This document shows, in pieces, positions 2,235 through 29,993 of a stretch of DNA of 64,000 nt; position 1 is the first letter of the stretch; each line of letters begins with the position of its first letter. A program made the translations under genes and the position numbers. Below the pieces are notes generated by a model. The model worked only from the letters and a program-made list of their open reading frames with translations. It did not search any database and was not told the origin of the DNA. The DNA is from a virus. Taxonomy: Duplodnaviria; Caudoviricetes. The stretch lies in IMG/VR virus record IMGVR_UViG_2841096034_000001; one strand, 5' to 3'.

Positions 2235-3398
2235 CTAACTTTCTCTTTCGATTTCTCGTTCTAACTTCTGATGATCCATATCATTGATAAACTGCTCATA
2301 TGTTTGTCCTAACGATCGTTGAATGCTTCTCAAAGAACGTTGCAATTGAATCCCTGAAGGCATGGACTTATAAGTGGCATTTGAATTGTTAGTTTGTCTA
2401 GGATACTGCTGACGATCGTACCGTTTCATTTCTTGCAAAAAAGCATTGCCCATTCGTTTATAGAGATCATCCAACTTGTCTTGTTTGTAATGTTGATAGC
2501 GTTTCTTATCCTTCAGTCCATCCCCATAGGCTTGCTTCAATTCATTTACTTCCTTGTCCAATTTTTCATGCAGCTGCTTCATATCTTTGCCATGATACTT
2601 ATCTAAATACCTTGTCGTTAGTTCATCTATCTTCGGTCGAATAGGATTCAGCGTTTGATAGCCATAGTGCCACTGTCGCTTATCCTTAGGCAAGTGATTA
2701 TACACATCGAGGAACAGAGGTTTTATTTCTCTATTGCTCCATTTCATGCTGCTATTTTCTTTCTTTGCATTCACCATGTGGTCACGAATCAACGAGTTAA
2801 TTTGATTTCGTTCTTGCGTTCGATTTAACAAGCCATTCACGACTTCACTTTTCATCGCGTCTAGCGTTTTCGGCTTTCGCTTTCCACGTTCACGAGTCGG
2901 GTTTGGTTCGACTGTGGCCACATGAATATGAATGTTATCGGTGTTATAGTGAATGGCCGCCGACCAGACAGCACTCTCTTGTAATCCCTCTTTTTTCATC
3001 ATCGACTGCAAGGATTTTCTTGTCACTTGCTTCAAAGCATCTTCATCTAAAGTGTGTGTCTTTGAATCATAAACGCCGCGTTTTTGAAGCCAATCATTAT
3101 CAAATGTAATAACGTCCTGCCACATGATACTGTTTTTCTTTTGAGCTTGTTCAAACAAAGATTTAATGCCCTGCTTTTCTTCCACCGATAAATGATCCGA
3201 CTGCTGAGTAAACAAAGCAGATGTTTTATCCGGATCGTCCATATAGTGATTATATAAACTAAACATGGACCGATGAGCATCCCCTTTTCCTTTGGCCTCT
3301 TCCCGATCCACATACTGTACATAATCTTGGAATCCTTTTTTATTCGCGGTCACGAATTTTGTTTTTAAAACCACCCCAGGCGTTACGGTTTCACTCAT
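2235..3398 (-). CDS. MobP2/MOB-L family relaxase (pLS20 Rel-like)
   Basis: DYVQYVDREEA, YNHYMDDP, MWQDVITFD and WSAAIHYNTDNIHIHVA HUH motif. Confidence 0.9.
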   Translation of the reverse strand: MSETVTPGVVLKTKFVTANKKGFQDYVQYVDREEAKGKGDAHRSMFSLYNHYMDDPDKTSALFTQQSDHLSVEEKQGIKSLFEQAQKKNSIMWQDVITFDNDWLQKRGVYDSKTHTLDEDALKQVTRKSLQSMMKKEGLQESAVWSAAIHYNTDNIHIHVATVEPNPTRERGKRKPKTLDAMKSEVVNGLLNRTQERNQINSLIRDHMVNAKKENSSMKWSNREIKPLFLDVYNHLPKDKRQWHYGYQTLNPIRPKIDELTTRYLDKYHGKDMKQLHEKLDKEVNELKQAYGDGLKDKKRYQHYKQDKLDDLYKRMGNAFLQEMKRYDRQQYPRQTNNSNATYKSMPSGIQLQRSLRSIQRSLGQTYEQFINDMDHQKLEREIERES

Positions 3399-3652
3399 GC
3401 TTCTTCACCTGGTTCTTCAATCTGCAAGAGATCGTTCATTTCTCGAATCACTGTATAACAATGAGCCATCGCTTGAATGTTTCGATCAACTAATTGCTGG
3501 AGTCTTTGTTCACGATTATTTTCTTCCTGAAAGATAGCTAACTGTTGTAACTGAGCATGCAAAAACTCTTGTCTGCTTAACCCTTTTTCATTCGCGAGTT
3601 CGTCAATTCGTTGGACGGTTTTCGGATCCATATAACGAATTCTTACTTCCAT
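3395..3652 (-). CDS. RHH relaxosome accessory protein (Aux1-like)
   Basis: MEVRIRYMDPKTVQRIDELANEKGLSRQEFL RHH pattern; AGGAGGG RBS before ATG at 3652 (the longer 152-aa call runs into oriT). Confidence 0.75.
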   Translation of the reverse strand: MEVRIRYMDPKTVQRIDELANEKGLSRQEFLHAQLQQLAIFQEENNREQRLQQLVDRNIQAMAHCYTVIREMNDLLQIEEPGEEA

Positions 3653-3659
3653 AAAAGTC

Positions 3660-3900
3660 CCTCCTTCTGAATAAGGTCCTAAAACTAGTGAATAAAGAGA
3701 AGAGCATAAGGGGTTTTTGTTCCCACTTGGCGTGTGAATCCCGGCAGAGCCGGGCAAAACGAGGGAACAAGAAAATCTCCAGATGTGCGGTCGCTGTGCG
3801 GCTAAAATAGGAACGTTCATTCGTGTATTCACCTTGATGTGTGGCCCCTGCACAGGAGATGTGTGGTCCGTGTGTTGACCTTTTTCACAACCTACACCCC
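3660..3900. promoter_or_regulatory. putative oriT
   Basis: Non-coding gap upstream of aux1-rel; GC hairpin CCCGGC-aga-GCCGGG (~3739-3754); three direct repeats GATGTG(C/T)GG at 3782, 3836 and 3858. Confidence 0.65.
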
Positions 3901-15145: not shown

Positions 15146-15409
15146 TTAAAAGATCACCTGACTGTCAATGTATTCAGCGATAGCTGTAGCTCCCATTAGA
15201 ACGACAAGTCCAACGGCACCACCAATGAACCACACGATAGAGCTTTGGCGGCCTCTAACTCCACCCCAGATAAGATGGTAGGCTCCTATACCAAAAGCAA
15301 TGGCAGCCGAGATAATACCCAAAAGCTGCATGGCGGTTAAAATTGATGCCCCTGTAGATTGTAAATTACTAATGGCAGCAAGCATGGAATAATCTGCAAA
15401 GTACTTCAT
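15146..15409 (-). CDS. TrbC/VirB2-like pilin
   Basis: 87 aa, two hydrophobic helices separated by GGVRGRQS, pilin-like pattern. Confidence 0.65.
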   Translation of the reverse strand: MKYFADYSMLAAISNLQSTGASILTAMQLLGIISAAIAFGIGAYHLIWGGVRGRQSSIVWFIGGAVGLVVLMGATAIAEYIDSQVIF

Positions 15410-15424
15410 TAAAATCTCCCCTTA

Positions 15425-15619
15425 TTAAATATTTTTGTTCTTGTTTTCTTCATCCACCCCTTTGTAATGGAGCAATGACTTCATAACGACATCTTGGTTT
15501 TGTTGAATGTAGTCTTGATGTTTTTCATGAAGCCACTCGTTGTAAGAAATGTCTTGGATGGTTAGCAGTGTCTGAACTAAGTCTTTTGATTGCTTAAGTT
15601 CACGATTAGTAACGCCCAT
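15425..15619 (-). CDS. small hypothetical protein (64 aa)
   Basis: ORF with GGTGA RBS, in operon. Confidence 0.55.
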   Translation of the reverse strand: MGVTNRELKQSKDLVQTLLTIQDISYNEWLHEKHQDYIQQNQDVVMKSLLHYKGVDEENKNKNI

Positions 15620-15652
15620 TCACCTTCACCCCCTTTCAAGGTTTTTGTCCAT

Positions 15653-15684
15653 AAAAAAAGAAGCGATCTATTAAAGATCACTTC
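15653..15684 (-). terminator. intrinsic terminator inside the conjugation operon
   Basis: Minus strand GAAGTGATCT-ttaat-AGATCGCTTC followed by T7. Confidence 0.75.
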
Positions 15685-15686
15685 CA

Positions 15687-16127
15687 TTAGGATGAAGTTT
15701 CGTTGATGAATTTTTGTATAGCTTGATCCCTATCTTCAAGGGTTTGGTATTTCTGTGTTTTTAAGGAGATACGGTTCTGTAATTGTCCACCCTCATAATA
15801 ACTTAGAGATTGGAAGAGTTCACTACCTTCCAAACCTATTTCATTCAGATCCATATCCCCATCAAGAATTTTTTGATTCTGAGCATTAATTTCTTTCACA
15901 TTAATTTCTTCAATATTCTCTTCCACTACCTTGATATGTTCATCTCTTTTTTCTTCCTCAGACGCATCAGTTACTAAAATATAAACATTGTCACTGTCTT
16001 GCAGAGTTTCTTTCATCTCACCTGGTGATAATGACTCGACTTGACCTGTGGCTCCTTGAGATCCGCAACCAACTAGGATTAAAACTACAACAAATCCAGC
16101 CAAACCACCGACCCAACGCTTTGCCAT
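15687..16127 (-). CDS. lipoprotein with thioredoxin-like fold lacking CxxC (surface-exclusion candidate)
   Basis: Lipobox LVGC; LSPGEMKETL...VYILV...LSYYEGGQLQNRI resembles thioredoxin-fold pattern; near the start of the conjugation operon. Confidence 0.6.
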   Translation of the reverse strand: MAKRWVGGLAGFVVVLILVGCGSQGATGQVESLSPGEMKETLQDSDNVYILVTDASEEEKRDEHIKVVEENIEEINVKEINAQNQKILDGDMDLNEIGLEGSELFQSLSYYEGGQLQNRISLKTQKYQTLEDRDQAIQKFINETSS

Positions 16128-16154
16128 CAGATCAATCTCCTCTCAAGTGATTTG

Positions 16155-16537
16155 TATAACGATTCTAACACCTACTCAAATATAAATCCACATTATGGAA
16201 GATAGATCTTTATTATTAATGATTGTTTATGGCGAGATACAATCAACCCTATGTAGAAGGATTATTCTTTCTACAATGCACAACGTTTCTAGCCTATACG
16301 AAGAACTTTATGTATCTAGGATAAACTATACAAAGCTTCATCAGTTTATACCTCACTTTATATAAGTAAACCATAATAGATACAACGCTTACCGGGTCAC
16401 AAGATGCGTTTCACGTAACACGCACCAAACGGTAATCGACTGTTAGGAAAGTTCAATGACCTTTCAGTTTCCTAACGTAGATATATACTTTTCAATGTTC
16501 AATATGTGCTATTTAAGCACGTGTTAAAATCGTTATA
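16155..16537 (-). ncRNA. large structured non-coding RNA (conAn2-like antiterminator candidate)
   Basis: 17-bp closing inverted repeat (16155-16171 vs 16521-16537, one G-U on the minus strand) enclosing at least six internal hairpins; no credible ORF. Confidence 0.65.
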
Positions 16538-16538
16538 T

Positions 16539-16772
16539 TTACTTCACAGGTTTCAGCTCACTCATAGGGTTTTTGCGTTTAGCAATGGTTCTGAATTGAT
16601 CATCTTTTACGGTTCGAATTCGATAATAGATACTGGCCAGCTTTTCAGTAGTACCATGACGATCAACCGCCCAAATACCACGCACATCATATCTTTTTCC
16701 TTCAAAGGTTTTTACATTGTCAGCTTGTGAAGCAATGTCATAATAAGCAAAGTGCTTTTTATTTGATTTCAC
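16539..16772 (-). CDS. small basic protein (77 aa), candidate partner of the adjacent RNA
   Basis: GGGAGG/AAGGTG RBS; stop codon abuts the RNA closing stem. Confidence 0.6.
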   Translation of the reverse strand: MKSNKKHFAYYDIASQADNVKTFEGKRYDVRGIWAVDRHGTTEKLASIYYRIRTVKDDQFRTIAKRKNPMSELKPVK

Positions 16773-16791
16773 CTTATCTTACCTCCCAAGT

Positions 16792-17814
16792 TTATGGTTC
16801 TCCCGCCACACTAAGCTTCAATTGTTCTAATAAAATGTCTATAGCTGAGCATTTACCATCCCTGATAGAAGCTATATCTTCTTCGGAAAGATTATATCGA
16901 TCATCAATGGATTCAAGAATATTCTCTCTCGATCTTTTTAGCTTAATCGCTAACTCAATGGTTCGAGCTGTATCTTCGATGCTAGGTTTTTTATTTATAT
17001 GATGCTTTTCTTGTTCTTCACGGTTTTTAAACCATTCCGGTAATACCTCCTGACTTTGTGATTGTTTGGAATACGTAGCTTTATTAGCCTGCTTGTTCTT
17101 ATATTCAACTTCTTCAGCATCCGCCTGTTCTACTGTTCGTATCCCTTTATTTATCCAGGATTGAAGGATGCTCTTAACGTAGCCCCATGTCGGTTTATTT
17201 CGGTCCAAGGAACGCTTCATAGCCTCCACAATTAATGGATCCCCAAGGTCTTCAACCCATTTCACTATTTCTTCTGAGATTTGAGGACGTATAATCCCAA
17301 AGTTGTTTTGGTAAAATTGAATGCTGTCACAATCCAATCGTTCAGAAGTTGTTGTAGTAATGAATTCTTTTACATTCTTAACTTCTTTAAGTTCTCTGCC
17401 ATTCTTGTATGTGTCTTTCTGCTGTCTCTCTGATGACGAGGAGTTGTCGTCTTGCTGTTTTTCTGCTGTTGTTTTGTTGTCGTATTCTTCATCGTTAGAT
17501 TGATAAATCCCCCAGTTTTCAACGGTTATTACACTATATTTGTTGGTGGTATTTATACTAATGACACTGTCTTCCTGAAGTATTTTTATATAGTCACGAA
17601 CGGTGGATTCATTCATACTTAATTCAGAAGCAGCTTTTTTACGGCCAAATATAAATTGTCCAGGTTTAAGAGTAACCTTTTGCCTCCCTACTCTCGATTC
17701 TGTACTTTTATGGCTTGCCTTCGTCAGACAATAAATGAACACTTTTAACAACTTCTCATTTTCGAAAATTTCACTATGAAGAATTTTACGATGCAGCTTT
17801 AACCACCCCTGCAC
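16792..17814 (-). CDS. phage-type replisome organizer / DnaD-domain protein
   Basis: GWLKLHRKI...LKPGQFIFGRKKAA wHTH N-terminus; DnaD motif FYQNNFG...WGYVKSILQSWINKGIRT. Confidence 0.85.
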   Translation of the reverse strand: MQGWLKLHRKILHSEIFENEKLLKVFIYCLTKASHKSTESRVGRQKVTLKPGQFIFGRKKAASELSMNESTVRDYIKILQEDSVISINTTNKYSVITVENWGIYQSNDEEYDNKTTAEKQQDDNSSSSERQQKDTYKNGRELKEVKNVKEFITTTTSERLDCDSIQFYQNNFGIIRPQISEEIVKWVEDLGDPLIVEAMKRSLDRNKPTWGYVKSILQSWINKGIRTVEQADAEEVEYKNKQANKATYSKQSQSQEVLPEWFKNREEQEKHHINKKPSIEDTARTIELAIKLKRSRENILESIDDRYNLSEEDIASIRDGKCSAIDILLEQLKLSVAGEP

Positions 17815-17825
17815 AACCTCACCTC

Positions 17826-18317
17826 CTAATTTATTAATCTCTTAGAATATAGAGTTTGGTGATGATCCTTCCAAAGCTTTAGCCAATTGATTTCATATCT
17901 TTCACAAACAGTAGCTAAATACAGGGTAGAGAAATGAATAACACCAGTCATAACTTCAGCTGATTTCCGTATGTCATGAATCTTAATAGAGTGCTTATCG
18001 TGTAATTTTACAGTTAAATTTACATTAGCTAATACATTAATAGCCTTCTGTAGTTCTTCCTCTAATAGAAGTTGTAAGAGAAAATTATCCTCTTCTACTT
18101 CCGGTCCCTCTAAGCGAGAGATCCCCCACCCAACATATTCATTAACAGATTCAAGTGCTAACCAAGGATTGTTATACTTCTCAATAAAGTATTTAGTGGA
18201 TACAGGAGGAATCTTCCGTTCTCCCCCTTCCTGTTTAGAGATATACTCTCTTGACTGAAACATATCTACAGCTAACTGTTGCTGGGTTTTATTTTTGTTT
18301 TTCCTTAAATCCTTCAT
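17826..18317 (-). CDS. XRE-HTH protein (phage-like early gene)
   Basis: TQQQLAVDMFQSREYISKQEGGERK HTH. Confidence 0.7.
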   Translation of the reverse strand: MKDLRKNKNKTQQQLAVDMFQSREYISKQEGGERKIPPVSTKYFIEKYNNPWLALESVNEYVGWGISRLEGPEVEEDNFLLQLLLEEELQKAINVLANVNLTVKLHDKHSIKIHDIRKSAEVMTGVIHFSTLYLATVCERYEINWLKLWKDHHQTLYSKRLIN

Positions 18318-18416
18318 TAACTGCGCTGATTTGCTTTTATTAATAGTTTCCCCCTCCTTACTTATTGATTTGTACCATTGATTGCTTTCTCAGAGGTATA
18401 TACTAGATTCATAGAG

Positions 18417-18740
18417 TCAAACAACACCAAAGTTTCTTTCCGGAGCAATATCATCAGATACATCAACATGATTTCTAATCCATGTAATGACTAAATCCTT
18501 GGGGTAAAGTGTCCGGCCACCTACATGAACTTTTGGAAAGTCCTTGCGCTTTAATACGTGAGCATCAAGAGATTGTACACTGACATTAAACACACGCTCA
18601 GCTAATTTTGTTCGATCAAGTAAATAGGGTAATTCCATTTCTTTCTGAACATCTTCTTGTGCTTTTTTAGCAATATCATAAAAAATATCATAAACCTTGT
18701 TATTAAAATCAGATTCGGGTTGCAGTTTAGCTTCAAACAT
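18417..18740 (-). CDS. excisionase-like HTH DNA-binding protein
   Basis: LLDRTKLAERVFNVSVQSLD...DFPKVHVGGRTLYPKDLVITWI MerR/Xis-type pattern. Confidence 0.6.
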   Translation of the reverse strand: MFEAKLQPESDFNNKVYDIFYDIAKKAQEDVQKEMELPYLLDRTKLAERVFNVSVQSLDAHVLKRKDFPKVHVGGRTLYPKDLVITWIRNHVDVSDDIAPERNFGVV

Positions 18741-18980
18741 CTACAACATCTCCTTATAAGTTTTTTGTTCCTTTAAGGAACATTGGTTTTCAAAAAAATT
18801 TGTCCACTTGAACTCTAGGGCAAAAGCTATGTCCTTCGCTGTTTCTACTGTAGGATTTTTAACTCCTGATTCAATATGGGTATAATAGCTTCTCGATATG
18901 TTTGATTTAATAGCTGTTTGTTTTTGCGTTAAATCCTTCTGAAGTCGAATCTCTTTTAACCACATCCTCAATATATTCAC
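18741..18980 (-). CDS. Cro-like XRE HTH regulator
   Basis: LTQKQTAIKSNISRSYYTHIESGVKNPT; divergent from immR. Confidence 0.85.
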   Translation of the reverse strand: MNILRMWLKEIRLQKDLTQKQTAIKSNISRSYYTHIESGVKNPTVETAKDIAFALEFKWTNFFENQCSLKEQKTYKEML

Positions 18981-19114
18981 CTCCTAAAGTTCCTTTAAGG
19001 AACATCTTACAATGTATTATAAGTTCCTTTAGGTAACATTGTCAACAATATCCATATAATTTTTTTACACTTTTAGGAACTTTTCTTTAAGTTACTTTGA
19101 GAAACATTTATAAT
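18767..19114. promoter_or_regulatory. divergent immR/cro promoters with five 15-bp operator palindromes (GTTCCTTTAAGGAAC consensus)
   Basis: Copies at 18767, 18989, 19023, 19066 and 19091; leftward TTGACA(19045-19040)-18bp-TATAAT(19021-19016); rightward TATAAT at 19109. Confidence 0.75.
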
Positions 19115-19161: not shown

Positions 19162-19584
19162 ATGAATTTTTCAAACAGGCTGAAAAGATGCCGACAAATA
19201 AAAAAAGAGGAAAATCCAAATTGGACCCAAGATTATATTGCGAGGCAAATTGGTGTAGCTCGAACAACTTACACAGCATACGAGAGAGGTACCAAAATTC
19301 CTACTTTAGATACTGTGAACAAGATCGCTGACCTTTTTGATGTATCCACCGATTACCTTTTAGGCCGATCAGATATTTCAGATTATCAAGTGGATAAAAG
19401 CAATGAATTTGATTCAATAAAAGAAGTGAATAAATTGATGGACCAATATGGAATTGAAGATGCAGCTTTTTTTGATTTGGAAAAGTGGAAATCAATGAGT
19501 CCAGAGCAGATAAGGGAATTGGAAAGTTACTTTCAATATTTAGTGAAAAAGTCTAAAGAGCTTGAGGAAAAAGAAAATAAATAA
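19162..19584 (+). CDS. immR: ImmR-like XRE repressor
   Basis: WTQDYIARQIGVARTTYTAYERG...ADLFDVSTDYLLGR; divergent arrangement. Confidence 0.8.
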   Translation: MNFSNRLKRCRQIKKEENPNWTQDYIARQIGVARTTYTAYERGTKIPTLDTVNKIADLFDVSTDYLLGRSDISDYQVDKSNEFDSIKEVNKLMDQYGIEDAAFFDLEKWKSMSPEQIRELESYFQYLVKKSKELEEKENK

Positions 19585-19823: not shown

Positions 19824-22424
19824 TTATTTATAACCCCTAGCAATAATTTCAGGATCACCCTTCTCTAATGCAACTTGTAGGCTATGCTTATAAACATGCT
19901 TTTTTTCTCTTATTTTTGAATCACGATTTAAGGATTTCCGATAGACAAACTTTTGTTTTAGCACATTTTTTCGTTGATTATAATAAAGAATAAATCTGGC
20001 TAATGGTGCTTGATCATTGGAATTTCGCCATATAATTTTGAAGCTCTTCATTCCTTCCCACTCTTCTACACTTAGCATTTTACATAATAAATTTAATTGC
20101 AATAAGTTAAATTCAGCATTTATGTTAACTTCTCTTGAAAGAATTAATTTAGTTTCATCGATAAATGGTTCCTGAACAACAGTAAAAGTAGTTATTGTCC
20201 TCAATTGGTGTATAAATTGCTCAAACGTACATATTGGAAATCTAGCTTCTAGAAAGTTTTCAAAATCTGTTTGTTTGACGTGCAAATTCAGTTTATTTAA
20301 GTGATTTTGGATTTGCTCCCAAAAGTCTCTATAGGTTTCTCTGATGGGATACACATGTTGATGTATCTTTTTTAGATGTAGAGCTAATTCTTTCTTTTGC
20401 ATCCGAACTTGATCATAGTTATCCTCGCTTGCTAATAGGTATTCCTTTGCAACGATACTGGATAATAACTTCGTTACTATATCTCGTACTTCCATACTTT
20501 CTCCATCTAAAATATTCATCTCACAATAACTTTCCATTGTTTTCGCAATGTCTAAGTTCTCTTGAATTAAATCCCCTGTACTGATAAAGCCAGTATCAAC
20601 ATCATATAGCTTCCATAAGAATCCATTATAAATTGCTATATTTTTTATTAGTATCTCGTTATTAACTTTTTCTAAATAGTCCCGCGAGTGTATACCTCTA
20701 TGGAACTTCTTAATAAACCGCTTCATTCTTTTCTCTAATAGCTTTACATCCATTTCTTTTATAGTAATTTCATTATTACCGGAGGGTGGGGTTTCCTGCT
20801 TCACATCCATCGGTTCCTCACTAGTGTTTTGAAAATGTCGATTCAGTGCACGGATTAAATTAGTAAAGACATCTACCCCACCAATAACCCCATAAGATTT
20901 TACTGGTTCCTCTGTCGATACATAATAATCGTCTAAATTATCACTAATGTGTTCCTTATCCCCACGTAATTCTGCTTGTTGGTGTATGTTTGTAGAGCCC
21001 CTTTGTTGATTCGCTTGTTCAATATCGTCTTCTGTTAGTATTAACCGATTATTCAAATCATCTAGCAAACCCACAAGTGTTTGATACTCTTCCAAATTTG
21101 AATCTTTTTCTAAATAATGGTATGGCGAATCCTTCATATTAGCAAAGGTCTTCAACAACATCTGGGTATCATGATACCAACCAACACATTCTAGGACTTG
21201 ATTCGGTGTTGTAATCAAAATATCAAAAGTTTCTTTTAATTTGTCTAAATTACGGTCGAACACATAAGTGTAGTAGGATTCAACCTGATCAATCTTCTTT
21301 CCTTGTGCGGCACAAACATGAACCTGATCGATTGATATGGTCGATTTTAGCTTTATGGTCAGCTTGTTTTGATCCAATACGCCCTCAATAAATTGAATCG
21401 TTTGTTTTTGCTGTTCCTGATTTGCCTCTTCCGGCATAAGTTCAAACAAGTCAGTTAAAGGAACAAAATTAAATTCTTCGTCAAAAAAAGAATCGAACTT
21501 ACCCTTTGGTCCTTTCTCCGCAATAACCGCTTCCGTATTACCGTCCGCACTTGTTTGTAACAAAGCCTGGCGACTACAGTTGGCACTTCCATATACAATG
21601 ACCTCTTCCTGCTCACCAATAAATCGAAAAACTTTTCCATGATACCTTTTATGATTATCCTCTGTGAAATTCACTTCATACAAATCAAACCTCGAATCAT
21701 CCTTTTTAGTTAATGGGAAATTCGTAGTTTTGTTTTGTAAATAGATCGAAACCTTTTCAGGGTTATATTTTTGATGCCAATGATTAATAACTGCAAGGGA
21801 TTGATCAAAGTATGGTGTCATGCAATCAATTCGTTTAATTACTTCTGGTAAGATCTCACTTAATTGATCTTGTATTGACCTCTCAAGATTCATGAACATC
21901 GATAGTGCATTATTTTCCCGATTAAAGTTATTTAAATAGTAAAAAGTCTGTAGTTGAGCCATCAATTCTTCCATCAATTTATTATTACTTGGCTTCGTTT
22001 GCCAAAACATACTTAAAGCAGCATTAATGATGTGAAGATGATCTTTATTTCTTCCAACCTCATAGGTGAATACGTTGAATAATTCTTTGTTCGTTATAAA
22101 TCCAGAAGGGGTTAAATTGCCACTACCAATAATCAGCTTTGCCTTTTTTTCACCTAATAACAAATACACTTTTGGATGAAAAGCATGATTAGTTTCCATT
22201 GGTGTTACCAGATAACTTTTTCCGAGTTCGGTGATATTTGGATGTTTAACCGAGTCTTGTAAACTATTATGATCAATAAAGAGCCCAATATATGTACAAC
22301 CATTATCTAACAAATGACGCAGAATCATCTTTTCAAAAAAAACTAAATCTGTGGAAAAGGATGAAAATAGTGCGACCTTATATCCGTTATGTTTCAACTC
22401 TTCTAGTATGTTAATCTTATCCAC
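19824..22424 (-). CDS. 866-aa protein with two phospholipase D-like (HxK...GSxN) nuclease domains; candidate defence effector
   Basis: FHPKVYLL...IIGSGNLT and YHGKVFRF...VYGSANCS; overlaps the upstream gene. Confidence 0.75.
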   Translation of the reverse strand: MDKINILEELKHNGYKVALFSSFSTDLVFFEKMILRHLLDNGCTYIGLFIDHNSLQDSVKHPNITELGKSYLVTPMETNHAFHPKVYLLLGEKKAKLIIGSGNLTPSGFITNKELFNVFTYEVGRNKDHLHIINAALSMFWQTKPSNNKLMEELMAQLQTFYYLNNFNRENNALSMFMNLERSIQDQLSEILPEVIKRIDCMTPYFDQSLAVINHWHQKYNPEKVSIYLQNKTTNFPLTKKDDSRFDLYEVNFTEDNHKRYHGKVFRFIGEQEEVIVYGSANCSRQALLQTSADGNTEAVIAEKGPKGKFDSFFDEEFNFVPLTDLFELMPEEANQEQQKQTIQFIEGVLDQNKLTIKLKSTISIDQVHVCAAQGKKIDQVESYYTYVFDRNLDKLKETFDILITTPNQVLECVGWYHDTQMLLKTFANMKDSPYHYLEKDSNLEEYQTLVGLLDDLNNRLILTEDDIEQANQQRGSTNIHQQAELRGDKEHISDNLDDYYVSTEEPVKSYGVIGGVDVFTNLIRALNRHFQNTSEEPMDVKQETPPSGNNEITIKEMDVKLLEKRMKRFIKKFHRGIHSRDYLEKVNNEILIKNIAIYNGFLWKLYDVDTGFISTGDLIQENLDIAKTMESYCEMNILDGESMEVRDIVTKLLSSIVAKEYLLASEDNYDQVRMQKKELALHLKKIHQHVYPIRETYRDFWEQIQNHLNKLNLHVKQTDFENFLEARFPICTFEQFIHQLRTITTFTVVQEPFIDETKLILSREVNINAEFNLLQLNLLCKMLSVEEWEGMKSFKIIWRNSNDQAPLARFILYYNQRKNVLKQKFVYRKSLNRDSKIREKKHVYKHSLQVALEKGDPEIIARGYK

Positions 22425-23961
22425 TTAGTTTCACCTCACCTAAAGGTGTTACATGATAGACGCGCTTTTTTTGCGTAATTAAGCCAAGGTCTTCTAAAAT
22501 ACTCAATCCTTGATATACACGAAACGTATTATATACAGGGGTATCTTCGGCAATTAGGTATAGCTTGCCATTGTTCTCAGTAAAGTGATACGTCTCATTA
22601 TTAGTCGTAATCATTTTATTTAAAGCAACTTTTTGATGTTGATCAAGAATATAATAATTTAAAATATAACTAATAAACTTGCTTACTGGTTTAGTCTTGT
22701 GTCCTTCTATCAACGATGTCCAACTTTGAAAAGAAATACTATCTCTTCCACCAAGGCGAAGCAATTCATAATGAAAATCCTGAAAGTCGGCTCGATTTTG
22801 TAACCGCAGATTTACATCTAACATGATTAGTAAGGGCTGCCACAGATGATTTTTCACACTTTTTTCTTGTTCTTCCATATGTTTGAGAAATGTTTCACGC
22901 CTATCATATGGAAATGAAAGATCATTTTCCAGATCTTTAACCGTCTGTTGTAAATCATAGCCCTGCTCACTTAATTCCACTAACACCGCAGAAATTAGTT
23001 CCGCTTTTGTGAATACTCTTTTGGACATTTTATCTAAAAGATACGTCCATATATTTAGGAGACTATAAGTGAAAAATTGTCTCGCCTGATAAATTTCCCA
23101 ACCAATAGCAACTTCGTTCACTCCAGCTTGTAAGTTTATTTTATTATGATAAAAGCTATCATACATGTGATGTTGCCAATCTTGAATCGATACTTTCTGC
23201 CCGTTAAAGTGGTTAATTAAAATCATGTAATAAAGAAGTGAATCTCTCCGCCATTCCCCTTTTGGGCTTTTGGGTTGTTCTGGCATAAACATGTTTGTGA
23301 GTAGTTTTCTATCCTTTGAGGAAGCATCTAATGATGCTAAAGCAGCAACTTTACCATATTCAACTAAGACTTCTCTTGGGACATTTATATCTTGCTTTCT
23401 ATATGTTTTATAATACGTAGTATCTTTTACGTTAAGCTCAAACGCATCGGCTAACTCTTTTCCAAAAGGTGTTAACCTATCAATGTTAACACCTTTTTTT
23501 GCATCACCAGCTTTGGTGACCCCCATTATCTTCATTACGTTTCGATACGTCCCATATCCTCCAAATGGATCCTTTACATACTTTGTATCAACAGAAAATC
23601 CCTGTTGATCCGAATTCCATACTTTATATCCATGGGTACTTCCAATCACACTATTAATAGTTCCTTCTCGTTCTTCAGCTTCTGCAATGTTTGCTAGAAT
23701 ATAATACCATTCTTGTTTTTTTAAATAAGTTTTAAAATTTTGTACTGACTTTTTATCCGGCACATTTTCAATAAAATCTTTCAGTACCCATGCGAAGAAC
23801 GACCAATATCTCGCCCTAGGGGTGATGCTAGTAATTCCAGATTGCAATGTATCCGCAATTGAAATCCCAACATAAAGAATCCCCAAATGGTCTTCCCCAT
23901 TAATCGTCCTGAAATTATTTGTTGTCCACCTTGGGCCTTGTGTCATTTGTACAGTGGTCAC
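22417..23961 (-). CDS. 514-aa partner of PLD protein (DUF6361-like N-terminal motif, C-terminal wHTH-like end)
   Basis: DHLGI...LQSGITSITPRARYWSFFAW; LTPFGKELA; ILEDLGLI...VTPLG. Confidence 0.6.
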   Translation of the reverse strand: MTTVQMTQGPRWTTNNFRTINGEDHLGILYVGISIADTLQSGITSITPRARYWSFFAWVLKDFIENVPDKKSVQNFKTYLKKQEWYYILANIAEAEEREGTINSVIGSTHGYKVWNSDQQGFSVDTKYVKDPFGGYGTYRNVMKIMGVTKAGDAKKGVNIDRLTPFGKELADAFELNVKDTTYYKTYRKQDINVPREVLVEYGKVAALASLDASSKDRKLLTNMFMPEQPKSPKGEWRRDSLLYYMILINHFNGQKVSIQDWQHHMYDSFYHNKINLQAGVNEVAIGWEIYQARQFFTYSLLNIWTYLLDKMSKRVFTKAELISAVLVELSEQGYDLQQTVKDLENDLSFPYDRRETFLKHMEEQEKSVKNHLWQPLLIMLDVNLRLQNRADFQDFHYELLRLGGRDSISFQSWTSLIEGHKTKPVSKFISYILNYYILDQHQKVALNKMITTNNETYHFTENNGKLYLIAEDTPVYNTFRVYQGLSILEDLGLITQKKRVYHVTPLGEVKLSG

Positions 23962-24181
23962 CTCTCTATATTGTAGGAAAGTAAATCTATTATAATTTTA
24001 GCACAATCTTAGGAACAGAGATGTTGTCACAGAGTACTAGAGATACTGTACATCAATTGATCCTAATCGTCCTCTTTAACGGAACAAACAACGCAATCCA
24101 ATCTTCCTGAATTGCGTCCTTTTCTAACACTTCTTATTGCACTTAGATAATTTAATGGAATTACCCAGTATTCAAATTTCA

Positions 24182-25492
24182 TTATAGAGGACGAACACTT
24201 CCTGATTTAAGACCAGAATTCACATTTCCATATACCTTTCTTATTTCTCTTTCGTTTTCTAATGCTGTATTCCATTTGGACAATAAGGTTTGAGCTATAT
24301 AATTAAAATATTGCTCCACATGTGTCTCCATGTGATCTTTATAATCGTTAAAAGAATTATAGGTATTTATATATCTAAAATATGTTTCAAATAAAACTGC
24401 ATCATCAAAATATGTATCAACTATAAAACAATAGGTTGAATCCTTAGGAAAAAAATACTCAGTCATCTTTTTCAATAAATTAAATTGCTTTTTATCTAAT
24501 TGAAACCATTCATTAGACAGTAACTTTCTTTTTCCTGGATTATTTTTATCATACCTGTGTTCATTTGCTAATTTGGAAATATATTTTCCTGAAAGTACGA
24601 CTAAAACATCTGAAATTCGAAGACCGACATGAGTAACAGAATCTTCATTTTCTTTTATTGAGGGAATATCCAATTTTTTGAAGGGGTCTATGGGTATCCC
24701 TTCATCAAGAATCAGTTCTGCCGACTGGCTATCAAATTTATTATAAAAGTTCATTTCTGTAATCCACAAGTCAATGTCAAATGTCACCTTGTTCCAATCA
24801 AATGAGACTTCATTAAAAGGGGTATCTTGAATAAAATGCTTTGTTTTTCTAATCGTTTGTACTAACCTTTCATAATCCTGTATTTGGTACTTCATTCTTT
24901 GAATGTTCTTATTCTTTGTCACAAAAGCTGCCAGGTCTTTCTGAATTTCCGTAAGAACTTCTCTATTTCCCTTATACTTATCAAAGATAGATTGAATTAC
25001 ACTATCACTGGCTTCAAGTTCCAAATATTTCACAAGAGAGTATTTAAAAAGTCGTGCCGATTCTATATATCTTTTTTCTTCTAATTTTAGGATCCACTGT
25101 GTCAATCTGTTGTCTGCAACTAGAGACATTTTATTTATAGTAAATAATAAATTGTCAACGTGGTTCTCAAGAAGTATATCAAACAAGGAATTATAAAAAT
25201 CTAGCTCACGATTTTTAAGACTCGCGATACCATACTTGAAATTCTTGGCCAAAATATCTTTTCCTTTTAATTCTTTATAGTCAGGTAAATTCCTTGAGGA
25301 AATATATTTCTTTTCTAACAATTTATAATTCTCTTCAATTTTATGGAGACTTTCCCTATTTATCTTAATTAAGTCAGCAACATAAACATACATGTTGTCA
25401 CTTCCTAACCGAATTTTTTTCTCTTCATCATAGGGAGTCGTCATCCTAATTGTATCTTGGGGTCCTTTTTCATCAATATATAAGTAATGCAT
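24182..25492 (-). CDS. DUF3800-like (RNase H-like fold) protein, extended to 436 aa; candidate defence gene
   Basis: N-terminal YLYIDEKG, ELKG, and DS..HVGLRISDVL motifs. Confidence 0.65.
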   Translation of the reverse strand: MHYLYIDEKGPQDTIRMTTPYDEEKKIRLGSDNMYVYVADLIKINRESLHKIEENYKLLEKKYISSRNLPDYKELKGKDILAKNFKYGIASLKNRELDFYNSLFDILLENHVDNLLFTINKMSLVADNRLTQWILKLEEKRYIESARLFKYSLVKYLELEASDSVIQSIFDKYKGNREVLTEIQKDLAAFVTKNKNIQRMKYQIQDYERLVQTIRKTKHFIQDTPFNEVSFDWNKVTFDIDLWITEMNFYNKFDSQSAELILDEGIPIDPFKKLDIPSIKENEDSVTHVGLRISDVLVVLSGKYISKLANEHRYDKNNPGKRKLLSNEWFQLDKKQFNLLKKMTEYFFPKDSTYCFIVDTYFDDAVLFETYFRYINTYNSFNDYKDHMETHVEQYFNYIAQTLLSKWNTALENEREIRKVYGNVNSGLKSGSVRPL

Positions 25493-25629
25493 TTTTTCAT
25501 CCTTTCATATCAGATTAAAATACTTTTTCCCTATTTAAAACCTAATCCATTTTTAGACACCTATCATTCACGTCTTAAAAAATATAAATTTCATTAAAAG
25601 ATAAACATAATCGAAGTTATATGAATTTT

Positions 25630-25783
25630 TAATGTAGTACCTATTTAAACGGCTAGCTCCATTGCCATTTTTAAGCGCTCCCAAGATTTTGTCTTACTCT
25701 TTCATGTGTTTATACATTACATCATCGCAGCTACGCATATTTTGGTTAGGTCCAGGATAACCTCCAACTCTTATATGAAGTTC
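25630..25783 (-). pseudogene. remnant of small GGYPG-motif protein
   Basis: Translates ELHIRVGGYPGPNQNMRSCDDVMYKHMKE*DKILGALKNGNGASRLNRYY with an internal stop; no start found. Confidence 0.55.
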
Positions 25784-25867
25784 TTTTTAAGAAATTTCTA
25801 AAATTTCTCAAGGAAATAAAACAATCTACAATAAAATAGTTGAATTTCTTTTTGAAACTTAAACTCT

Positions 25868-27550
25868 CTAATGATTAATATCTTTAACTTTCTCTTTTGA
25901 CCCCAACGCCTCTAAAGTATTATCAAAAGCATCCATGATTCTTTTATCAATAAATTTTGGCCTCTTCATTGGGAAATTCCTTTGATATAAAAAATCTTTA
26001 AATGAAGTTAGAGGATTGTCAAAAAATTCATTAACAATGTTAAATATAGATCTTTTCTTAGAGATTAGGTAGCAAAGCGCTTCAAATTCTTCTATATCTA
26101 AATTCACAAAACCTTTAATTAAATCAGATTCCCTGACATCTTTAAGTTTATCTTTTACAAAATTTTCAAATGATCCTAGGCTGCGACATTTGTTTGTTGT
26201 TACTGAGAATATGTAAACTTCTTCAATGCTCTCTAGTTTATTTGACACAGTTGTTTCTATAATTTCTGTAATGGATTTAAATGCTTGTTGAACTGGCTCA
26301 ATATTCATTTTGTTAAAATCTTTTTTTATAGTTACTTCATCACCTTGTAAAAAAGATGCTGCCCGTACTCTTCTGTTCTTTACTTCAAAAACAGCTAGTT
26401 TATTTCCAAGTTTAATCATGACATCGGGAGATTTTTTTGAATTGTTCTCTCCATAATTAAACTCCTCAATAAATTCATAGTGTCCTAACTTAGATTGATT
26501 TACACTCTCTTCACCTAAAAGGGCAGCATATTCTTCAAAAGGTCTTCCTAGAAATCCAAGTATTTTATCATCATTATACATTTGTCTCACTTTAAAGAAG
26601 AAGGATTCATAAACTTTATCCTCTAAAAATGGTGTACACACTGGAAAGTAACATTCATTACTATACTTAAATAACGGTTTTATCTGAAACAACGAAAAAT
26701 CCCATGGGTTATGAATAGTCTTCATCGCCCATTTTTTTGCATCCGAATAACTAAAGGAAAGTTCGTTAACTACTTTCACTCCAGTCGTATCTAAATGGGT
26801 ATTATGATAATAATTTATAGGATTTATAAGCACTGGTTCATTTGTCGATTTTTTATCTGAACTTAAAAACTTGCTTATTAGAGATGTTATGATTGAAAAA
26901 TATTCCTTCATAGAATAAGGGTTTAATTTTTCAAAATCTGATTGAATGTCTATGAATTCTTTCTTATTATACCTGCTCTCATCAGCAGCTAAATCTAGAT
27001 ATATATATGAAGATCTACCTAATGAAGCGAATACTTCAGGTCTGTTATTAAAATAAATATTTCTAATTAGTTCAATTTCTAAAGATTTGGACTCATCTCT
27101 ATATAAGGTGTCTCCAATTTTAGCGAATAAGGAAATGACGCTACCTATTAAATCGTTTTCTGATAAATTAGAGGATTTCTTTAACATTTCTTCAGTACCA
27201 TATGCAAAAATGTATTTCCACAAAGTTAAAATACATTGATAATTTAATATAGTTCTACTAGCTATAACTGATGCTGCTCTTTGTGTTAAAAGTCCTTTCT
27301 TCTTTAAATAAAATAAATAACTTCTTTTTATGTCTGGATCCATCTTATCAAGATACTGTAACCTAGATAAAAGTAAAATAGTGTCTTGCAAAGGCTTATT
27401 CTCGATAGCATTCTTTATACTTTCTTCCTTACCTTTGATTCCAAACAGTTCACTATAAGTTAGGTAAACTGAAATGTTACTTTTATTTAATTTTCTCATT
27501 AGTTCACATCCTTTTTTTATTTCTGTAATTTCAATGTTTATTTGGCACAC
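25868..27550 (-). CDS. 560-aa protein with C-terminal PD-(D/E)xK (NERD-like) nuclease motif; candidate defence gene
   Basis: GRPFEEY...KSPDVMIKLGNKLAVFEVKN; very AT-rich. Confidence 0.6.
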   Translation of the reverse strand: MCQINIEITEIKKGCELMRKLNKSNISVYLTYSELFGIKGKEESIKNAIENKPLQDTILLLSRLQYLDKMDPDIKRSYLFYLKKKGLLTQRAASVIASRTILNYQCILTLWKYIFAYGTEEMLKKSSNLSENDLIGSVISLFAKIGDTLYRDESKSLEIELIRNIYFNNRPEVFASLGRSSYIYLDLAADESRYNKKEFIDIQSDFEKLNPYSMKEYFSIITSLISKFLSSDKKSTNEPVLINPINYYHNTHLDTTGVKVVNELSFSYSDAKKWAMKTIHNPWDFSLFQIKPLFKYSNECYFPVCTPFLEDKVYESFFFKVRQMYNDDKILGFLGRPFEEYAALLGEESVNQSKLGHYEFIEEFNYGENNSKKSPDVMIKLGNKLAVFEVKNRRVRAASFLQGDEVTIKKDFNKMNIEPVQQAFKSITEIIETTVSNKLESIEEVYIFSVTTNKCRSLGSFENFVKDKLKDVRESDLIKGFVNLDIEEFEALCYLISKKRSIFNIVNEFFDNPLTSFKDFLYQRNFPMKRPKFIDKRIMDAFDNTLEALGSKEKVKDINH

Positions 27551-28017: not shown

Positions 28018-28068
28018 CTCTCCAAAACTATGAACCTTTATTTCATTAAGGTTCATAGTTTTGGAGAG
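28018..28068. repeat. perfect 21-bp inverted repeat, 9-nt loop
   Basis: CTCTCCAAAACTATGAACCTT / AAGGTTCATAGTTTTGGAGAG. Confidence 0.85.
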
Positions 28069-28159
28069 GAATTCCTATACTTTAGGCATTTATATAAAAA
28101 GAAATCTTAATTCCCTTTATCTTTCACCTACATTTATATCCAATTATTGTAATTATATG

Positions 28160-28188
28160 TTGAATAATAGAACGCACGTTCGTATAAT
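28160..28188 (+). promoter_or_regulatory. sigma-A promoter of immA-int with LexA (Cheo/SOS) box in the spacer
   Basis: TTGAAT(28160)-17bp-TATAAT(28183); AGAACGCACGTTCG at 28169-28182 matches GAAC-N4-GTTC. Confidence 0.8.
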
Positions 28189-28210
28189 GCTTGTAAGGAT
28201 GGTGATTAGT

Positions 28211-28723
28211 TTGAGATTTCCTTACTATACAACAACAATTCTAGAAGATTTAATAACTCAGTGGTATAAAATTCACAAATTTACAGAGCCCAATGATTTA
28301 AATGTTTACAGCATTGGAACAGAGTCACAAATCTTTGTCACTTGTAGACCTACTCAAGCTAGTTACATGAAAGTAGGAAAGTTTCAAGAAATTGTCTTGG
28401 ATAGTCGCCTACCATATATACAACAACGAGAGCAATTCTTCCATGAGCTTTGCCACGCAATAAGGCATGCAGGTCGCCAATCTATCATGCCATATTCTTT
28501 TTACGAACTTCAGGAAAGAGACGCCAGGCACTTTACTCTCTATGCCTCGCTTCCCATCCATATGATTAATGAATATAACATTGCTAGCCCAGCAATTGTT
28601 GACCAGTTATCGCAAGATTTTATGATTCCAAAGAACATTTGTATTGAACGCTTAGAAAAGATTAAGAATCGAATTGTACCATCCGTTAGACCTCAATTCT
28701 TTAATATAAAAAAGGAGGGATAA
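28211..28723 (+). CDS. immA: ImmA/IrrE family metallopeptidase anti-repressor
   Basis: QREQFFHELCHAIRH and QERDARHF motifs; likely TTG start at 28211; directly upstream of int. Confidence 0.85.
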   Translation: MRFPYYTTTILEDLITQWYKIHKFTEPNDLNVYSIGTESQIFVTCRPTQASYMKVGKFQEIVLDSRLPYIQQREQFFHELCHAIRHAGRQSIMPYSFYELQERDARHFTLYASLPIHMINEYNIASPAIVDQLSQDFMIPKNICIERLEKIKNRIVPSVRPQFFNIKKEG

Positions 28724-28725
28724 AT

Positions 28726-29904
28726 ATGGCTAATTTCCGAAAAAGAGGGAGTAAATGGTACTTTCAAATATATACAGGTATAGATCCATCCACTGGGAGA
28801 AAGAAGTTCACATCTAAAGGAGGATTTAAGACTAAAAAGGAAGCTCAGATGGCCGCAGTTGAAGTAGAAAAGGAAGTATTTGAAAACACATATGTTCAAG
28901 AGCAAAATATTACCTTTCAAGAATTTACTTTAGAGTGGATTAAGAATTATCGTGAAACCGCCAAAATTAGTTCTGTTAGAAACCGGCAGCAAAACTTGGA
29001 TCACTTAAACAGATTTTTTGGAAATAAAAAAATAAAAGATATCACGCGTAAACAGTATCAAGCCTTGCTTGCTTCGCTGCATAATGCAGGCTACGCTTTT
29101 AATACTTTGGATGGCATTCATGCAACAGGTAGAATGGTCTTTAGGAAAGCTGTGGAATTTAACATAATTAAGGACAGTCCTTGCGACTTTGCAAAAATTC
29201 CACGCAAAGTGGAAACCGTTGAGGAGGTTGAGAGCAGTAAAGGTGAGATTAAATTTATGGAAAAAGAAGAACTTATTCGTTTTCTTAATGCTGCAAAGGA
29301 AAGTGGCATCGATAAAGACTACCCCATGTTTTTGACACTTGCTTATAGTGGATTACGAGTAGGGGAGCTTATCGCATTAAAATGGTCGGATATAGATATG
29401 GATAAAAAAACCTTAAGAGTAACCAAAACTTATTACAACCCCAACAATAGTACAAAAGAGTATCAATTACTGACTCCCAAAACTAAAGGATCGATCAGAA
29501 CGTTAAAAATGGACGCTGGAGTTATTGAGGTCCTCCAAAAACACAAGGAACACCAGGATTATCTCATTGAAAAGATGAAGAACGAGTATACTCAACTGGA
29601 TTTTGTTTTTGCTAAGGAAGTTCAGAACCTTGGATACCCTGAATTTTTAAAGACCGTAAACACCCATATGAGACGTTTATTAAAAATTAGTGGCATCGAT
29701 AAGGAACTTACCCCTCACTCCTTGCGACACACCCACACCTCTCTATTAATTGAAGCAGGAGTAGGAGTTAAGGAAATTCAGCAACGATTAGGTCATGGAG
29801 ATATAAACACAACCATGAATATATACGCGCACATTACTGAAAACATGGAAGAAAAAGCCTCCCAAAAGTTCAGTGAACTTATGAGAGGCTCATTAGATTT
29901 ATAG
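28726..29904 (+). CDS. int: tyrosine integrase with Arm DNA-binding domain
   Basis: GGFKTKKEA arm domain; SGLRVGEL, HSLRHTH, RLGH, MNIY catalytic motifs. Confidence 0.95.
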   Translation: MANFRKRGSKWYFQIYTGIDPSTGRKKFTSKGGFKTKKEAQMAAVEVEKEVFENTYVQEQNITFQEFTLEWIKNYRETAKISSVRNRQQNLDHLNRFFGNKKIKDITRKQYQALLASLHNAGYAFNTLDGIHATGRMVFRKAVEFNIIKDSPCDFAKIPRKVETVEEVESSKGEIKFMEKEELIRFLNAAKESGIDKDYPMFLTLAYSGLRVGELIALKWSDIDMDKKTLRVTKTYYNPNNSTKEYQLLTPKTKGSIRTLKMDAGVIEVLQKHKEHQDYLIEKMKNEYTQLDFVFAKEVQNLGYPEFLKTVNTHMRRLLKISGIDKELTPHSLRHTHTSLLIEAGVGVKEIQQRLGHGDINTTMNIYAHITENMEEKASQKFSELMRGSLDL

Positions 29905-29980: not shown

Positions 29981-29993
29981 CATGGGGGCATGA

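Follow-up and report, generated by a model that had tools for sequence, protein, structure and literature searches.

A small gene and a conserved non-coding gap precede the transfer genes

The DNA analysed here is a 64,000-nt stretch of the viral record IMGVR_UViG_2841096034_000001 (hereafter the window), which occupies 1.76-1.83 Mb of a 4.1-Mb contig in a 4.28-Mb genome. On its minus strand, a gene for a 77-aa protein is separated from a gene for a 146-aa lipoprotein by a gap of 411 nt (16128-16538), and the conjugation genes of an integrative and conjugative element (ICE) lie further downstream (Table 1). An initial annotation, made from the letters alone, had proposed that the gap encodes a structured RNA which, together with the 77-aa protein, forms a bipartite processive antitermination system at the head of the conjugation operon, comparable to plasmid pLS20's ConAn1 protein with its conAn2 RNA. 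We find that the 77-aa gene and a 383-nt RNA within the gap most probably (probability about 0.8) constitute an ICE-borne module of this conAn type, belonging to the branch represented by plasmid pFR55. Both parts are homologous to a system that has been tested; on the sense strand, the RNA has a conserved fold with covariation, and downstream of it stands a terminator that is likewise conserved. Specifically, pFR55 is one of eight plasmids whose conAn system was tested (PMC8191782). The published conAn assays were transcriptional reporters; in B. subtilis, they gave +++ for the complete pFR55 system and ++ for conAn2 by itself (Table 1 of PMC8191782). The proposal that the system is a conAn-type module carried by an ICE is thus supported, both components being matched to pFR55 and the context being a chromosomal ICE.

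The 77-aa product is a predicted ConAn1 of the pFR55 branch

The 77-aa protein shares 49% identity (E 8e-24) with an 82-aa protein of pFR55, which is the sole PF17362-like open reading frame (ORF) of the pFR55 record. The pFR55 branch of ConAn1 carries the Pfam domain PF17362 and includes fusions to the helix-turn-helix (HTH) domain HTH_3 in Exiguobacterium and Planococcus (PMC8191782). When the 77-aa protein was compared with plasmids by tblastn, 232 records were matched; 185 cover at least 80% of the query and 120 are typed as conjugative. These records come from Bacillus, Staphylococcus, Priestia, Exiguobacterium and Planococcus, with one Klebsiella record, and the best identities are 49-51%. 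Additionally, a profile of 14 Halobacillaceae proteins yielded 33 matches at E <= 0.001 in a representative library of 1.84 billion proteins, among which the published HTH_3 fusions recur. One of the matches, P0042 (whole-library E 6.5e-5, residues 13-79), is 37% identical to pLS20 ConAn1 over its full length, and alignment of a 25-sequence profile with pLS20 ConAn1 by hhalign gave a probability of 94.1% (E 1.3e-7, residues 12-79). It is the N-terminal half of pLS20 ConAn1 that is credited with processivity in the available part of PMC8191782. The initial annotation had been unable to match the short protein to ConAn1, a link now made through pFR55, P0042 and the profile alignment with pLS20. 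A word-indexed protein search returned 13 close relatives only, every one of them named 'hypothetical'. As judged from these sequence comparisons, the 77-aa product is a predicted small, single-domain ConAn1 of the pFR55 branch.

An AF2 (AlphaFold2) model of the 77-aa protein, with a predicted local distance difference test score (pLDDT) of 91.6, consists of a single helix packed against a small beta-barrel. A sequence-profile search of solved structures gave chance matches only (E > 0.6), and a Foldseek search of the model against the PDB gave none at E <= 0.001. In a wider structural search, the best Z score was 4.9, and YaeO (4.1), the KOW domains of Spt5 (3.5-3.7), NusG in the lambda antitermination complex (2.8) and the C-terminal domain of RfaH (2.7) were among the matches. 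Because these values lie below the level that the tool treats as meaningful, the likeness to small beta-barrels of the KOW kind is a lead only.

Among the representative proteins, the ConAn1 domain stands behind an HTH_3 domain in at least seven and is tandemly duplicated in one protein of 171 aa (proteins concerned: P0037, P0027, P0030, P0032-P0034, P0038 and P0041). Two long proteins were set aside, since P0015 (2504 aa) has 36 and P0031 (965 aa) 5 short stretches that match the ConAn1 profile; these matches probably reflect repeats of a short motif rather than homology.

The gap is conserved in Halobacillaceae and has relatives on plasmids

Relatives of the locus were collected by scanning one genome per species. 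In fifteen loci, all from Halobacillus, Thalassobacillus or Sediminibacillus, there is an ORF whose product shares 71-100% identity with the 77-aa protein, and in every one of them this ORF is followed by a gap of 408-428 nt and then by an ORF of 143-146 aa. When aligned, the 16 Halobacillaceae gaps have a mean column identity of 83%. The gene order, namely a DnaD-type gene, the small ORF, the gap, the lipoprotein gene and genes for 64-, 87- and 369-aa proteins, is kept in the 14 loci with enough flanking sequence. In all 14 the DnaD-type gene adjoins conAn1 on the upstream side; the other three upstream genes are less widely kept. Across the family, a genome search found one to three copies in 23 of 56 genomes (three of seven genera; 31 matches), and several copies lie at megabase positions of large contigs.

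Published conAn2 regions are non-coding, ~260-600 bp long, directly downstream of conAn1 and only 30-40% identical to one another (PMC8191782); at 411 nt (408-428 in relatives), the gap falls within this size range. Similarity to plasmids was recovered by profiles. A nhmmer profile of the 16 gaps matched the corresponding gap of pFR55 with E 3e-14 when searched alone and 1.8e-13 in a joint search. Altogether the region directly 3' of the ConAn1 homologue was matched in five of nine plasmid loci, the others being B. cereus p30048_2 (1.5e-21), Priestia flexa (2.7e-17), and B. cytotoxicus and a further B. cereus plasmid (~2e-17 each). A narrow covariance model, R1, recognised the pFR55 gap with E 6.9e-5; the other plasmid RNAs were aligned only in part, that of L020 with E 0.26, because their first hairpin differs in sequence and size. 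The plasmids also share the order conAn1, RNA, small genes, a gene for a protein of ~365 aa and VirD4. No family of Rfam release 15 matched anywhere in the window at the gathering score; under permissive settings, chance-level matches only (E > 1) appeared in 15400-17000, and none of them within the gap.

The non-coding region after conAn1 measures 667 nt (2738-3404) in the plasmid of B. cytotoxicus (L018) and 1132 nt (2738-3869) in that of B. cereus Z4 (L021), and RNA homology is confined to the first ~480 nt. As PLSDB does not list all genes of these plasmids, further genes may be present there.

Covariation supports a fold of the sense-strand RNA

A 418-nt stretch spanning the gap folds to -106.2 kcal/mol, compared with -85.5±5.3 kcal/mol for shuffled sequences (z = -3.9), and one of 100 shuffles folds as well. 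Covariation was assessed in an alignment of 14 sequences, comprising 10 of the 16 Halobacillaceae rows and four plasmids; left out were the near-duplicates L002-L005, L010 and L014, the plasmid L021, which is almost identical to L018, and the four loci without a profile match. The consensus structure computed with RNAalifold has 75 pairs, and 97.5% of its 1046 cells are standard pairs. Compensatory changes occur in 38 of the 75 pairs, as against 19.4±2.5 in 500 column shuffles, none of which reaches 38, and 10-11 in slid controls. The same alignment served to derive the structure, which favours it in the slid control, and kinship among the sequences inflates the shuffle control; the margin is still large. 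The covariation anticipated for homologues by the initial annotation is therefore present.

Could the stem and hairpins be a product of chance in an AT-rich spacer, next to an ORF that is not a gene at all? The region is indeed AT-rich, and the one shuffle in 100 that folds equally well speaks for this view. Against it stand the conservation of sequence and length in 15 of 15 loci, covariation far above the controls, the 33 representative matches of the protein family and the confident model of the protein fold. We give this explanation practically no weight.

The alignment also assigns the fold to one strand, since it contains 120 G·U cells and only 3 A·C cells; pairing reaches 97.5% on the sense strand versus 86.3% on the antisense strand. 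Strand specificity by itself would equally be expected of an element that works as single-stranded DNA, whether as an accessory transfer site of the ICE or as a single-strand origin from which the lagging strand is synthesised. Single-strand origins are typically large imperfect palindromes, and the gene 19 nt upstream of the 77-aa ORF encodes a 340-aa protein of the DnaB_2 family. Yet the RNA-protein pair also occurs on plasmids that lack the upstream DnaD-type gene, the element always sits directly 3' of the small ORF and within the operon, and the many G·T wobbles (the same 120 cells) are better tolerated in RNA. Moreover, the relaxase gene, near which an origin of transfer (oriT) would be expected, is 13 kb away, and the published assays were transcriptional reporters (PMC8191782). 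A function as single-stranded DNA is thus very unlikely, and we retain the reading of the gap as an RNA of the conAn2 kind.

The RNA is enclosed by a long closing helix, P1 (Table 1). Its 17-bp core, which the initial annotation had already pointed out together with a single mismatch that forms a T·G wobble on the minus (sense) strand only, is present as described on both counts and recurs in related RNAs with compensatory changes. In the extended helix, 12 of 25 pairs are changed on both sides. Every related RNA that was examined has a closing stem in the corresponding position, of 16-18 bp in the five matched plasmid RNAs, again with compensatory change of sequence; the Exiguobacterium gap has an unrelated closing stem of 13+12 bp. 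Next to the core, a local hairpin GTGCT (16520-16516)/AGCAC (16510-16506) is conserved and competes with the covarying extension of P1. This hairpin is invariant, and covariation is therefore uninformative about it; it and the P1 extension are mutually exclusive and may alternate.

Within P1, the 5' domain contains the hairpin GTTAGGAAA/TTTCCTAAC, for which 99.1% of cells are paired and 1 of 14 pairs is compensatory within Halobacillaceae, a weakly supported helix. At its place, a GC-rich stem of other sequence is predicted in three of four RNAs of the Bacillus and Priestia plasmids. The loop of this hairpin pairs with a downstream GTGACC to form an H-type pseudoknot that spans a GC-rich hairpin. 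The pseudoknot helix (helix 2) is 98.8% paired with two compensatory pairs. Three Thalassobacillus-type sequences carry the variant AGTCAC/GTGACT, in which a G-C pair becomes A-U, and all four plasmid RNAs have a perfect partner, with GGATCAC/GTGATCC in one and the wobble-containing GGATCAC/GTGATCT in another. The GC-rich hairpin (helix 4) is 100% paired, and 3 of its 7 pairs are compensatory. A GC-rich region and the stem-loop SL1 are essential in pLS20 conAn2, and by analogy this hairpin is a candidate counterpart of them; the hairpin and the pseudoknot are conserved and covary, and their sequences are not alignable to the pLS20 conAn2 elements.

A central domain with short inner helices comes next, followed by three 3' hairpins that span 16222..16306. 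Among these hairpins, the first is nearly invariant, with no pair changed on both sides, the second (TGTAGA/TCTACA) has 5 of 6 and the third (ATTGT/ACAAT) 5 of 5 compensatory pairs. All hairpins listed in the initial annotation can be found in the sequence, and only some are conserved. The second and third 3' hairpins were borne out by covariation, as was TGCGT/ACGCA in the form of the GC-rich hairpin GGTGCGT/ACGCATC; TTACCG/CGGTAA and ATAAACT/AGTTTAT, in contrast, are not kept in the alignments of relatives.

Table 1. Positions of the module, its RNA elements and the flanking features in the window.
Feature	Position	Strand	Description
conAn1-like gene	16539..16772	-	77 aa, GTG start; GGGAGG ribosome-binding site upstream
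conAn2-like structured RNA	16155..16537	-	383 nt, closing stem to closing stem
Closing helix P1, 5' arm	16512..16537	-	17-bp core 16537-16521; extension 16519-16512
Closing helix P1, 3' arm	16155..16180	-	Core 16171-16155; ends 27 nt ahead of lipoprotein start codon
Hairpin GTTAGGAAA/TTTCCTAAC	16442..16476	-	Arms 16476-16468 and 16450-16442; loop GGTCAT 16461-16456
GC-rich hairpin GGTGCGT/ACGCATC	16403..16426	-	Arms 16426-16420 and 16409-16403; helix 4
Pseudoknot 3' partner GTGACC	16395..16400	-	Pairs with loop GGTCAT 16461-16456; H-type, spans GC-rich hairpin
Central domain	16311..16384	-	Closed by TGTATC (16384-16379)/GATACA (16316-16311); short inner helices; helices 5-9
3' hairpin 1	16306-16298/16286-16278	-	Helix 10
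3' hairpin 2, TGTAGA/TCTACA	16275-16270/16257-16252	-	Helix 11
3' hairpin 3, ATTGT/ACAAT	16243-16239/16226-16222	-	Helix 12
Weak promoter-like site	16192..16219	-	TTAATA, 16 nt, CATAAT; 9/12 matches; in 3' part of RNA
Lipoprotein gene	15687..16127	-	146 aa, lipobox LVGC; no Pfam match
Intrinsic terminator	15650..15685	-	11-bp stem 15685-15659, then T7
Four genes, promoter to conAn1	16792..18980	-	cro-like HTH, 79 aa; 107 aa; 163 aa (weak HTH); 340-aa DnaB_2/DnaD-type replication protein
Operon promoter candidate	19016..19045	-	Perfect TTGACA, 18 nt, TATAAT; sigma-70-type
Repressor-like HTH gene	19162-19584	+	Divergent from promoter 19045-19016

A conserved terminator and a variable lipoprotein gene follow the RNA

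The intrinsic terminator that had been noted right after the next gene is real: its stem, in the same sequence or with small variants, is kept in 15 of 15 Halobacillaceae loci. A separate promoter beyond it was also looked for, and the stretch up to the next start codon, at 15619, contains no promoter-like site. According to the available part of the 2023 conAn paper, terminators with long stems resist conAn, a 14-bp stem being cited as a resistant example; the 11-bp stem found here is shorter.

The lipoprotein shows 28% identity to a 147-aa protein at the same position on pFR55. In the loci L004, L007 and L009-L015, it is only 43-48% identical where the neighbouring conAn1, 64-aa and 87-aa products are 77-100% identical. 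Such local diversification is as expected for an entry-exclusion or recognition protein, and by its position and hypervariability the lipoprotein is a candidate exclusion protein. Upstream of its gene, within the 3' part of the RNA, lies a weak promoter-like site whose -10-like box is partly conserved in the alignment. By analogy with P29/ses/Ter30 of pLS20, this site might be a constitutive promoter of the lipoprotein gene, with a transcript ending at the terminator.

The module lies ahead of all transfer genes of a chromosomal ICE

A 19-bp direct repeat has one copy just beyond the integrase gene, at 29993-30011 of the window, and a second at 5361-5379 of L028, the stretch that flanks the window on the left, which places it 12.6 kb left of the window. 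These paired repeats delimit an integrated element of ~42.6 kb. The module is hosted by a chromosomal ICE whose transfer apparatus is of the pLS20 type (MobL, VirD4, VirB4), and genes for a tyrosine integrase and an ImmA-like peptidase are found at 28061-29904.

The promoter candidate of the operon, divergent from a gene for a repressor-like HTH protein, opens a co-directional array that runs ~31.6 kb to attL and fits the operon size of >30 kb that the available part of the 2022 conAn paper gives for conAn operons. Unlike in conAn operons described before, conAn1 is not the first gene of the array. It is the fifth, being preceded by four ORFs (79, 107, 163 and 340 aa), the last of which is separated from it by 19 nt; a cro-like HTH gene ahead of conAn1 also occurs on some plasmid relatives. 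The placement at the operon head proposed in the initial annotation is accordingly amended to a position ahead of all transfer genes. Beyond the terminator follow genes for 64-, 87- and 369-aa proteins, a VirD4-type coupling protein, a 633-aa protein, DUF5592 and a VirB4-like ATPase, and the array continues with a lysozyme/M23 cell-wall hydrolase, the MobL relaxase and an ArdC-like protein. All genes for the type IV secretion system, the coupling protein and the relaxase are thus downstream of conAn on the same strand. A second clean terminator lies 3' of the ArdC-like gene (L028 18000-17981); beyond it, genes for a DUF3991-Toprim primase, HEPN-like and DUF4062 proteins and a type III restriction-modification pair continue on the same strand to attL. 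A strong terminator-like hairpin at 4707-4686 (9-bp stem with a T-run) was set aside, as it lies within coding sequence, in a membrane segment of a 302-aa ORF.

With the operon in view, a different role for the RNA can be considered. It might be a conAn2 homologue that acts as a leader of the lipoprotein mRNA and controls its translation, stability or processing, with the protein as an RNA chaperone or regulator and no processive antitermination involved. The distance of 27 nt between the 3' arm of P1 and the lipoprotein start codon, the promoter-like site inside the RNA, the position of conAn1 behind other genes and the presence of only two clean intergenic terminators in ~31.6 kb would all suit a leader. 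However, both parts are homologous to a system reported active in antitermination, and the RNA is kept on plasmids whose downstream gene is different or absent, no lipoprotein homologue having been found in L017-L021. Furthermore, no riboswitch or leader of Rfam matches, and a strong, conserved terminator, behind which no promoter-like site lies, stands one gene downstream. We consider the leader role unlikely, and favour a conAn-type antitermination module.

Proposed working of the module

By homology with pFR55 and pLS20, we infer the following steps for the ICE. Upon derepression, transcription would start from the candidate operon promoter, and the polymerase would cross the regulatory and replication genes, conAn1 and then the RNA region. 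The nascent RNA would fold into the long-range closing helix, the pseudoknotted 5' domain and several hairpins, and would remain attached in cis to the polymerase from which it emerged, an association that ConAn1 would stabilise. The modified polymerase could then bypass ordinary intrinsic terminators, first the one after the lipoprotein gene and later that 3' of the ArdC-like gene, so that the whole ~31.6-kb co-directional array would be transcribed. Transcripts that start 3' of the RNA, for example from the promoter-like site at 16219-16192, would lack conAn2 and end at the first terminator.

Several observations weigh against this interpretation. On the protein side, the 77-aa product by itself matches PF17362 with only E 0.03 and 14.9 bits (cut-off 30.8), and BLASTP finds no similarity between it and pLS20 ConAn1. 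On the RNA side, four of the nine ConAn1-bearing plasmid loci, namely Exiguobacterium pEspB, B. pumilus pONU554 and two from Staphylococcus, have no match to the RNA profile. A blastn search of the gap in distant mode against all plasmids gave no match, its plasmid relatives being visible to profiles only, and nhmmer with both RNA profiles found no similarity in the pLS20 region that holds conAn2. The comparisons with Rfam and with pLS20 conAn2 suggested by the initial annotation therefore both came out negative. Within Halobacillaceae alone, the 5' domain shows too little variation to reach significance, with two compensatory pairs, a number equalled in 160 of 500 shuffles. Mutation of the flanking 20-bp repeats of pLS20 left antitermination unaltered, and the closing stem may accordingly not be the functional core. 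As for the targets, the clean intergenic terminators of the ~31.6-kb array are the two named above, and terminator-like sites are not enriched overall (19 versus 14.1±4.5 expected). Finally, the paper gives the limits of the assayed pFR55 fragment in supplementary tables, and that it corresponds to the ORF and gap compared here is presumed.

A more specific and tentative picture may be drawn, which we regard as doubtful. In this picture, the pFR55-type conAn2 RNAs, including the ICE copy, would form a definable, uncatalogued RNA family. At their conserved core, a loop GG(A)UCAC would pair with GUGA(U)CC over the GC-rich hairpin to give an H-type pseudoknot, and the long closing helix would clamp this core. 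As a small SH3/KOW-like beta-barrel, ConAn1 would dock the RNA on RNA polymerase, as NusG-type KOW domains do on elongation complexes, and GUGCU/AGCAC versus the extension of the closing helix could act as a co-transcriptional folding switch. If true, a family with a pseudoknot core and a KOW-like ConAn1 would provide the first structural model of how conAn works.

Comparison with known systems

The closest relative is pFR55 (Miguel-Arribas et al., Nucleic Acids Res 2021, PMC8191782), whose RNA has the same long closing helix (18 bp) and shares the pseudoknot between loop and downstream partner. Downstream, its 147-aa protein is followed by proteins 50% identical to the 64- and 87-aa ones of the ICE and then by one of ~361 aa. 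In contrast, the RNA region of pFR55 is 554 nt long with an extra insert of ~120 nt near the 5' end, and the GC-rich stem of its first hairpin is unrelated in sequence. The pFR55 system resides on a plasmid rather than a chromosomal ICE, in which four regulatory or replication genes precede conAn1, and it has no terminator directly after the gene for the 147-aa protein, where the gap is 29 nt.

In pLS20 of B. subtilis, ConAn1 and conAn2 are genes 28a and 28b. The ICE resembles it in the succession of protein gene, non-coding region, surface/exclusion-type gene and terminator, in the ~383-nt non-coding region, enclosed by a long inverted repeat that measures 20 bp in pLS20 and 17-25 bp in the ICE, and in the transfer genes for the MobL relaxase, a VirD4 of the CD1115 family, DUF5592 and the DUF3991-Toprim primase; the N-terminal domain of ConAn1 is remotely homologous. 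However, pLS20 ConAn1 is a 172-aa protein that has an additional C-terminal domain, and neither it nor the pLS20 RNA shows pairwise similarity to the ICE. In pLS20, moreover, an attenuator leader of 456 nt is followed by conAn1 as the first gene, and there are up to ~20 internal terminators.

An ICE-borne processive antitermination system through which a long conjugation operon bypasses internal terminators has been described as canT of Tn916, in the available text of the preprint (bioRxiv 10.1101/2024.09.05.611371). By that description, canT is a different element, an RNA without a dedicated protein partner; the same text cites conAn as a plasmid system only. The put RNAs of phage HK022 and EAR of the Bacillus eps operon are likewise cis-acting nascent RNAs that make the polymerase terminator-resistant, but they are much smaller and have no protein partner (PMC8191782). 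A search of the main texts of the 2021, 2022, 2023 and 2026 conAn papers found no mention of conAn on an integrative element; the supplementary list of 662 homologues in the 2021 paper may include chromosomal copies. EAR has an Rfam entry, and no Rfam family matched in the window.

The comparison supports well the view that the module adds an ICE context and a covariation-backed structure of one RNA branch to the conAn family, and is no new kind of system. It extends conAn from the plasmids of published work to chromosomal integrative elements, and elements bearing it are common in Halobacillaceae (23 of 56 genomes). The conAn2 RNAs had been described as predicted stem-loops only in the available parts of the conAn papers; for one branch, which has no Rfam entry, there is now a covariation-supported secondary structure with a pseudoknot, offering concrete targets for mutational and structural studies. 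For annotation of genomes, the start of the transfer genes of such elements can be marked by the combination of a small PF17362-like ORF with a ~400-nt gap behind it that has a long inverted repeat as its closure.

Other features of the ICE and its flanks

A 16-nt palindrome motif had a single match in the window, with two mismatches and inside the integrase gene; it was dismissed as chance, 7 of 100 shuffles giving an equal match. To the left of the ICE, two near-identical perfect palindromes of 40 nt (L028 5236-5275 and 991-1030) form 18-bp stems and are terminator-like in both directions. Each lies 86 bp from a copy of the att repeat and outside the ICE, and their stems recall the conAn-resistant terminator of pLS20. 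The one at L028 5275-5236 was considered as a conAn-resistant end of the operon and rejected; located 86 bp outside attL, it belongs to the chromosomal flank and not to the ICE. A third copy of the att repeat, of 16 bp, is found at L028 1116-1131, 4.2 kb further left of the attL copy, and an IS21-type istA/istB pair (L028 2723-4716) lies between the two left copies, an arrangement suggestive of another small insertion, or of a remnant, at the attachment site of the ICE.

Likely defence cargo is present on both arms of the ICE. The arm at 19824-27550 of the window encodes an 866-aa protein resembling PLD-family nucleases and three large ORFs without Pfam matches, and the arm at L028 5828-14113 carries the HEPN-like and DUF4062 proteins together with the type III restriction-modification pair.

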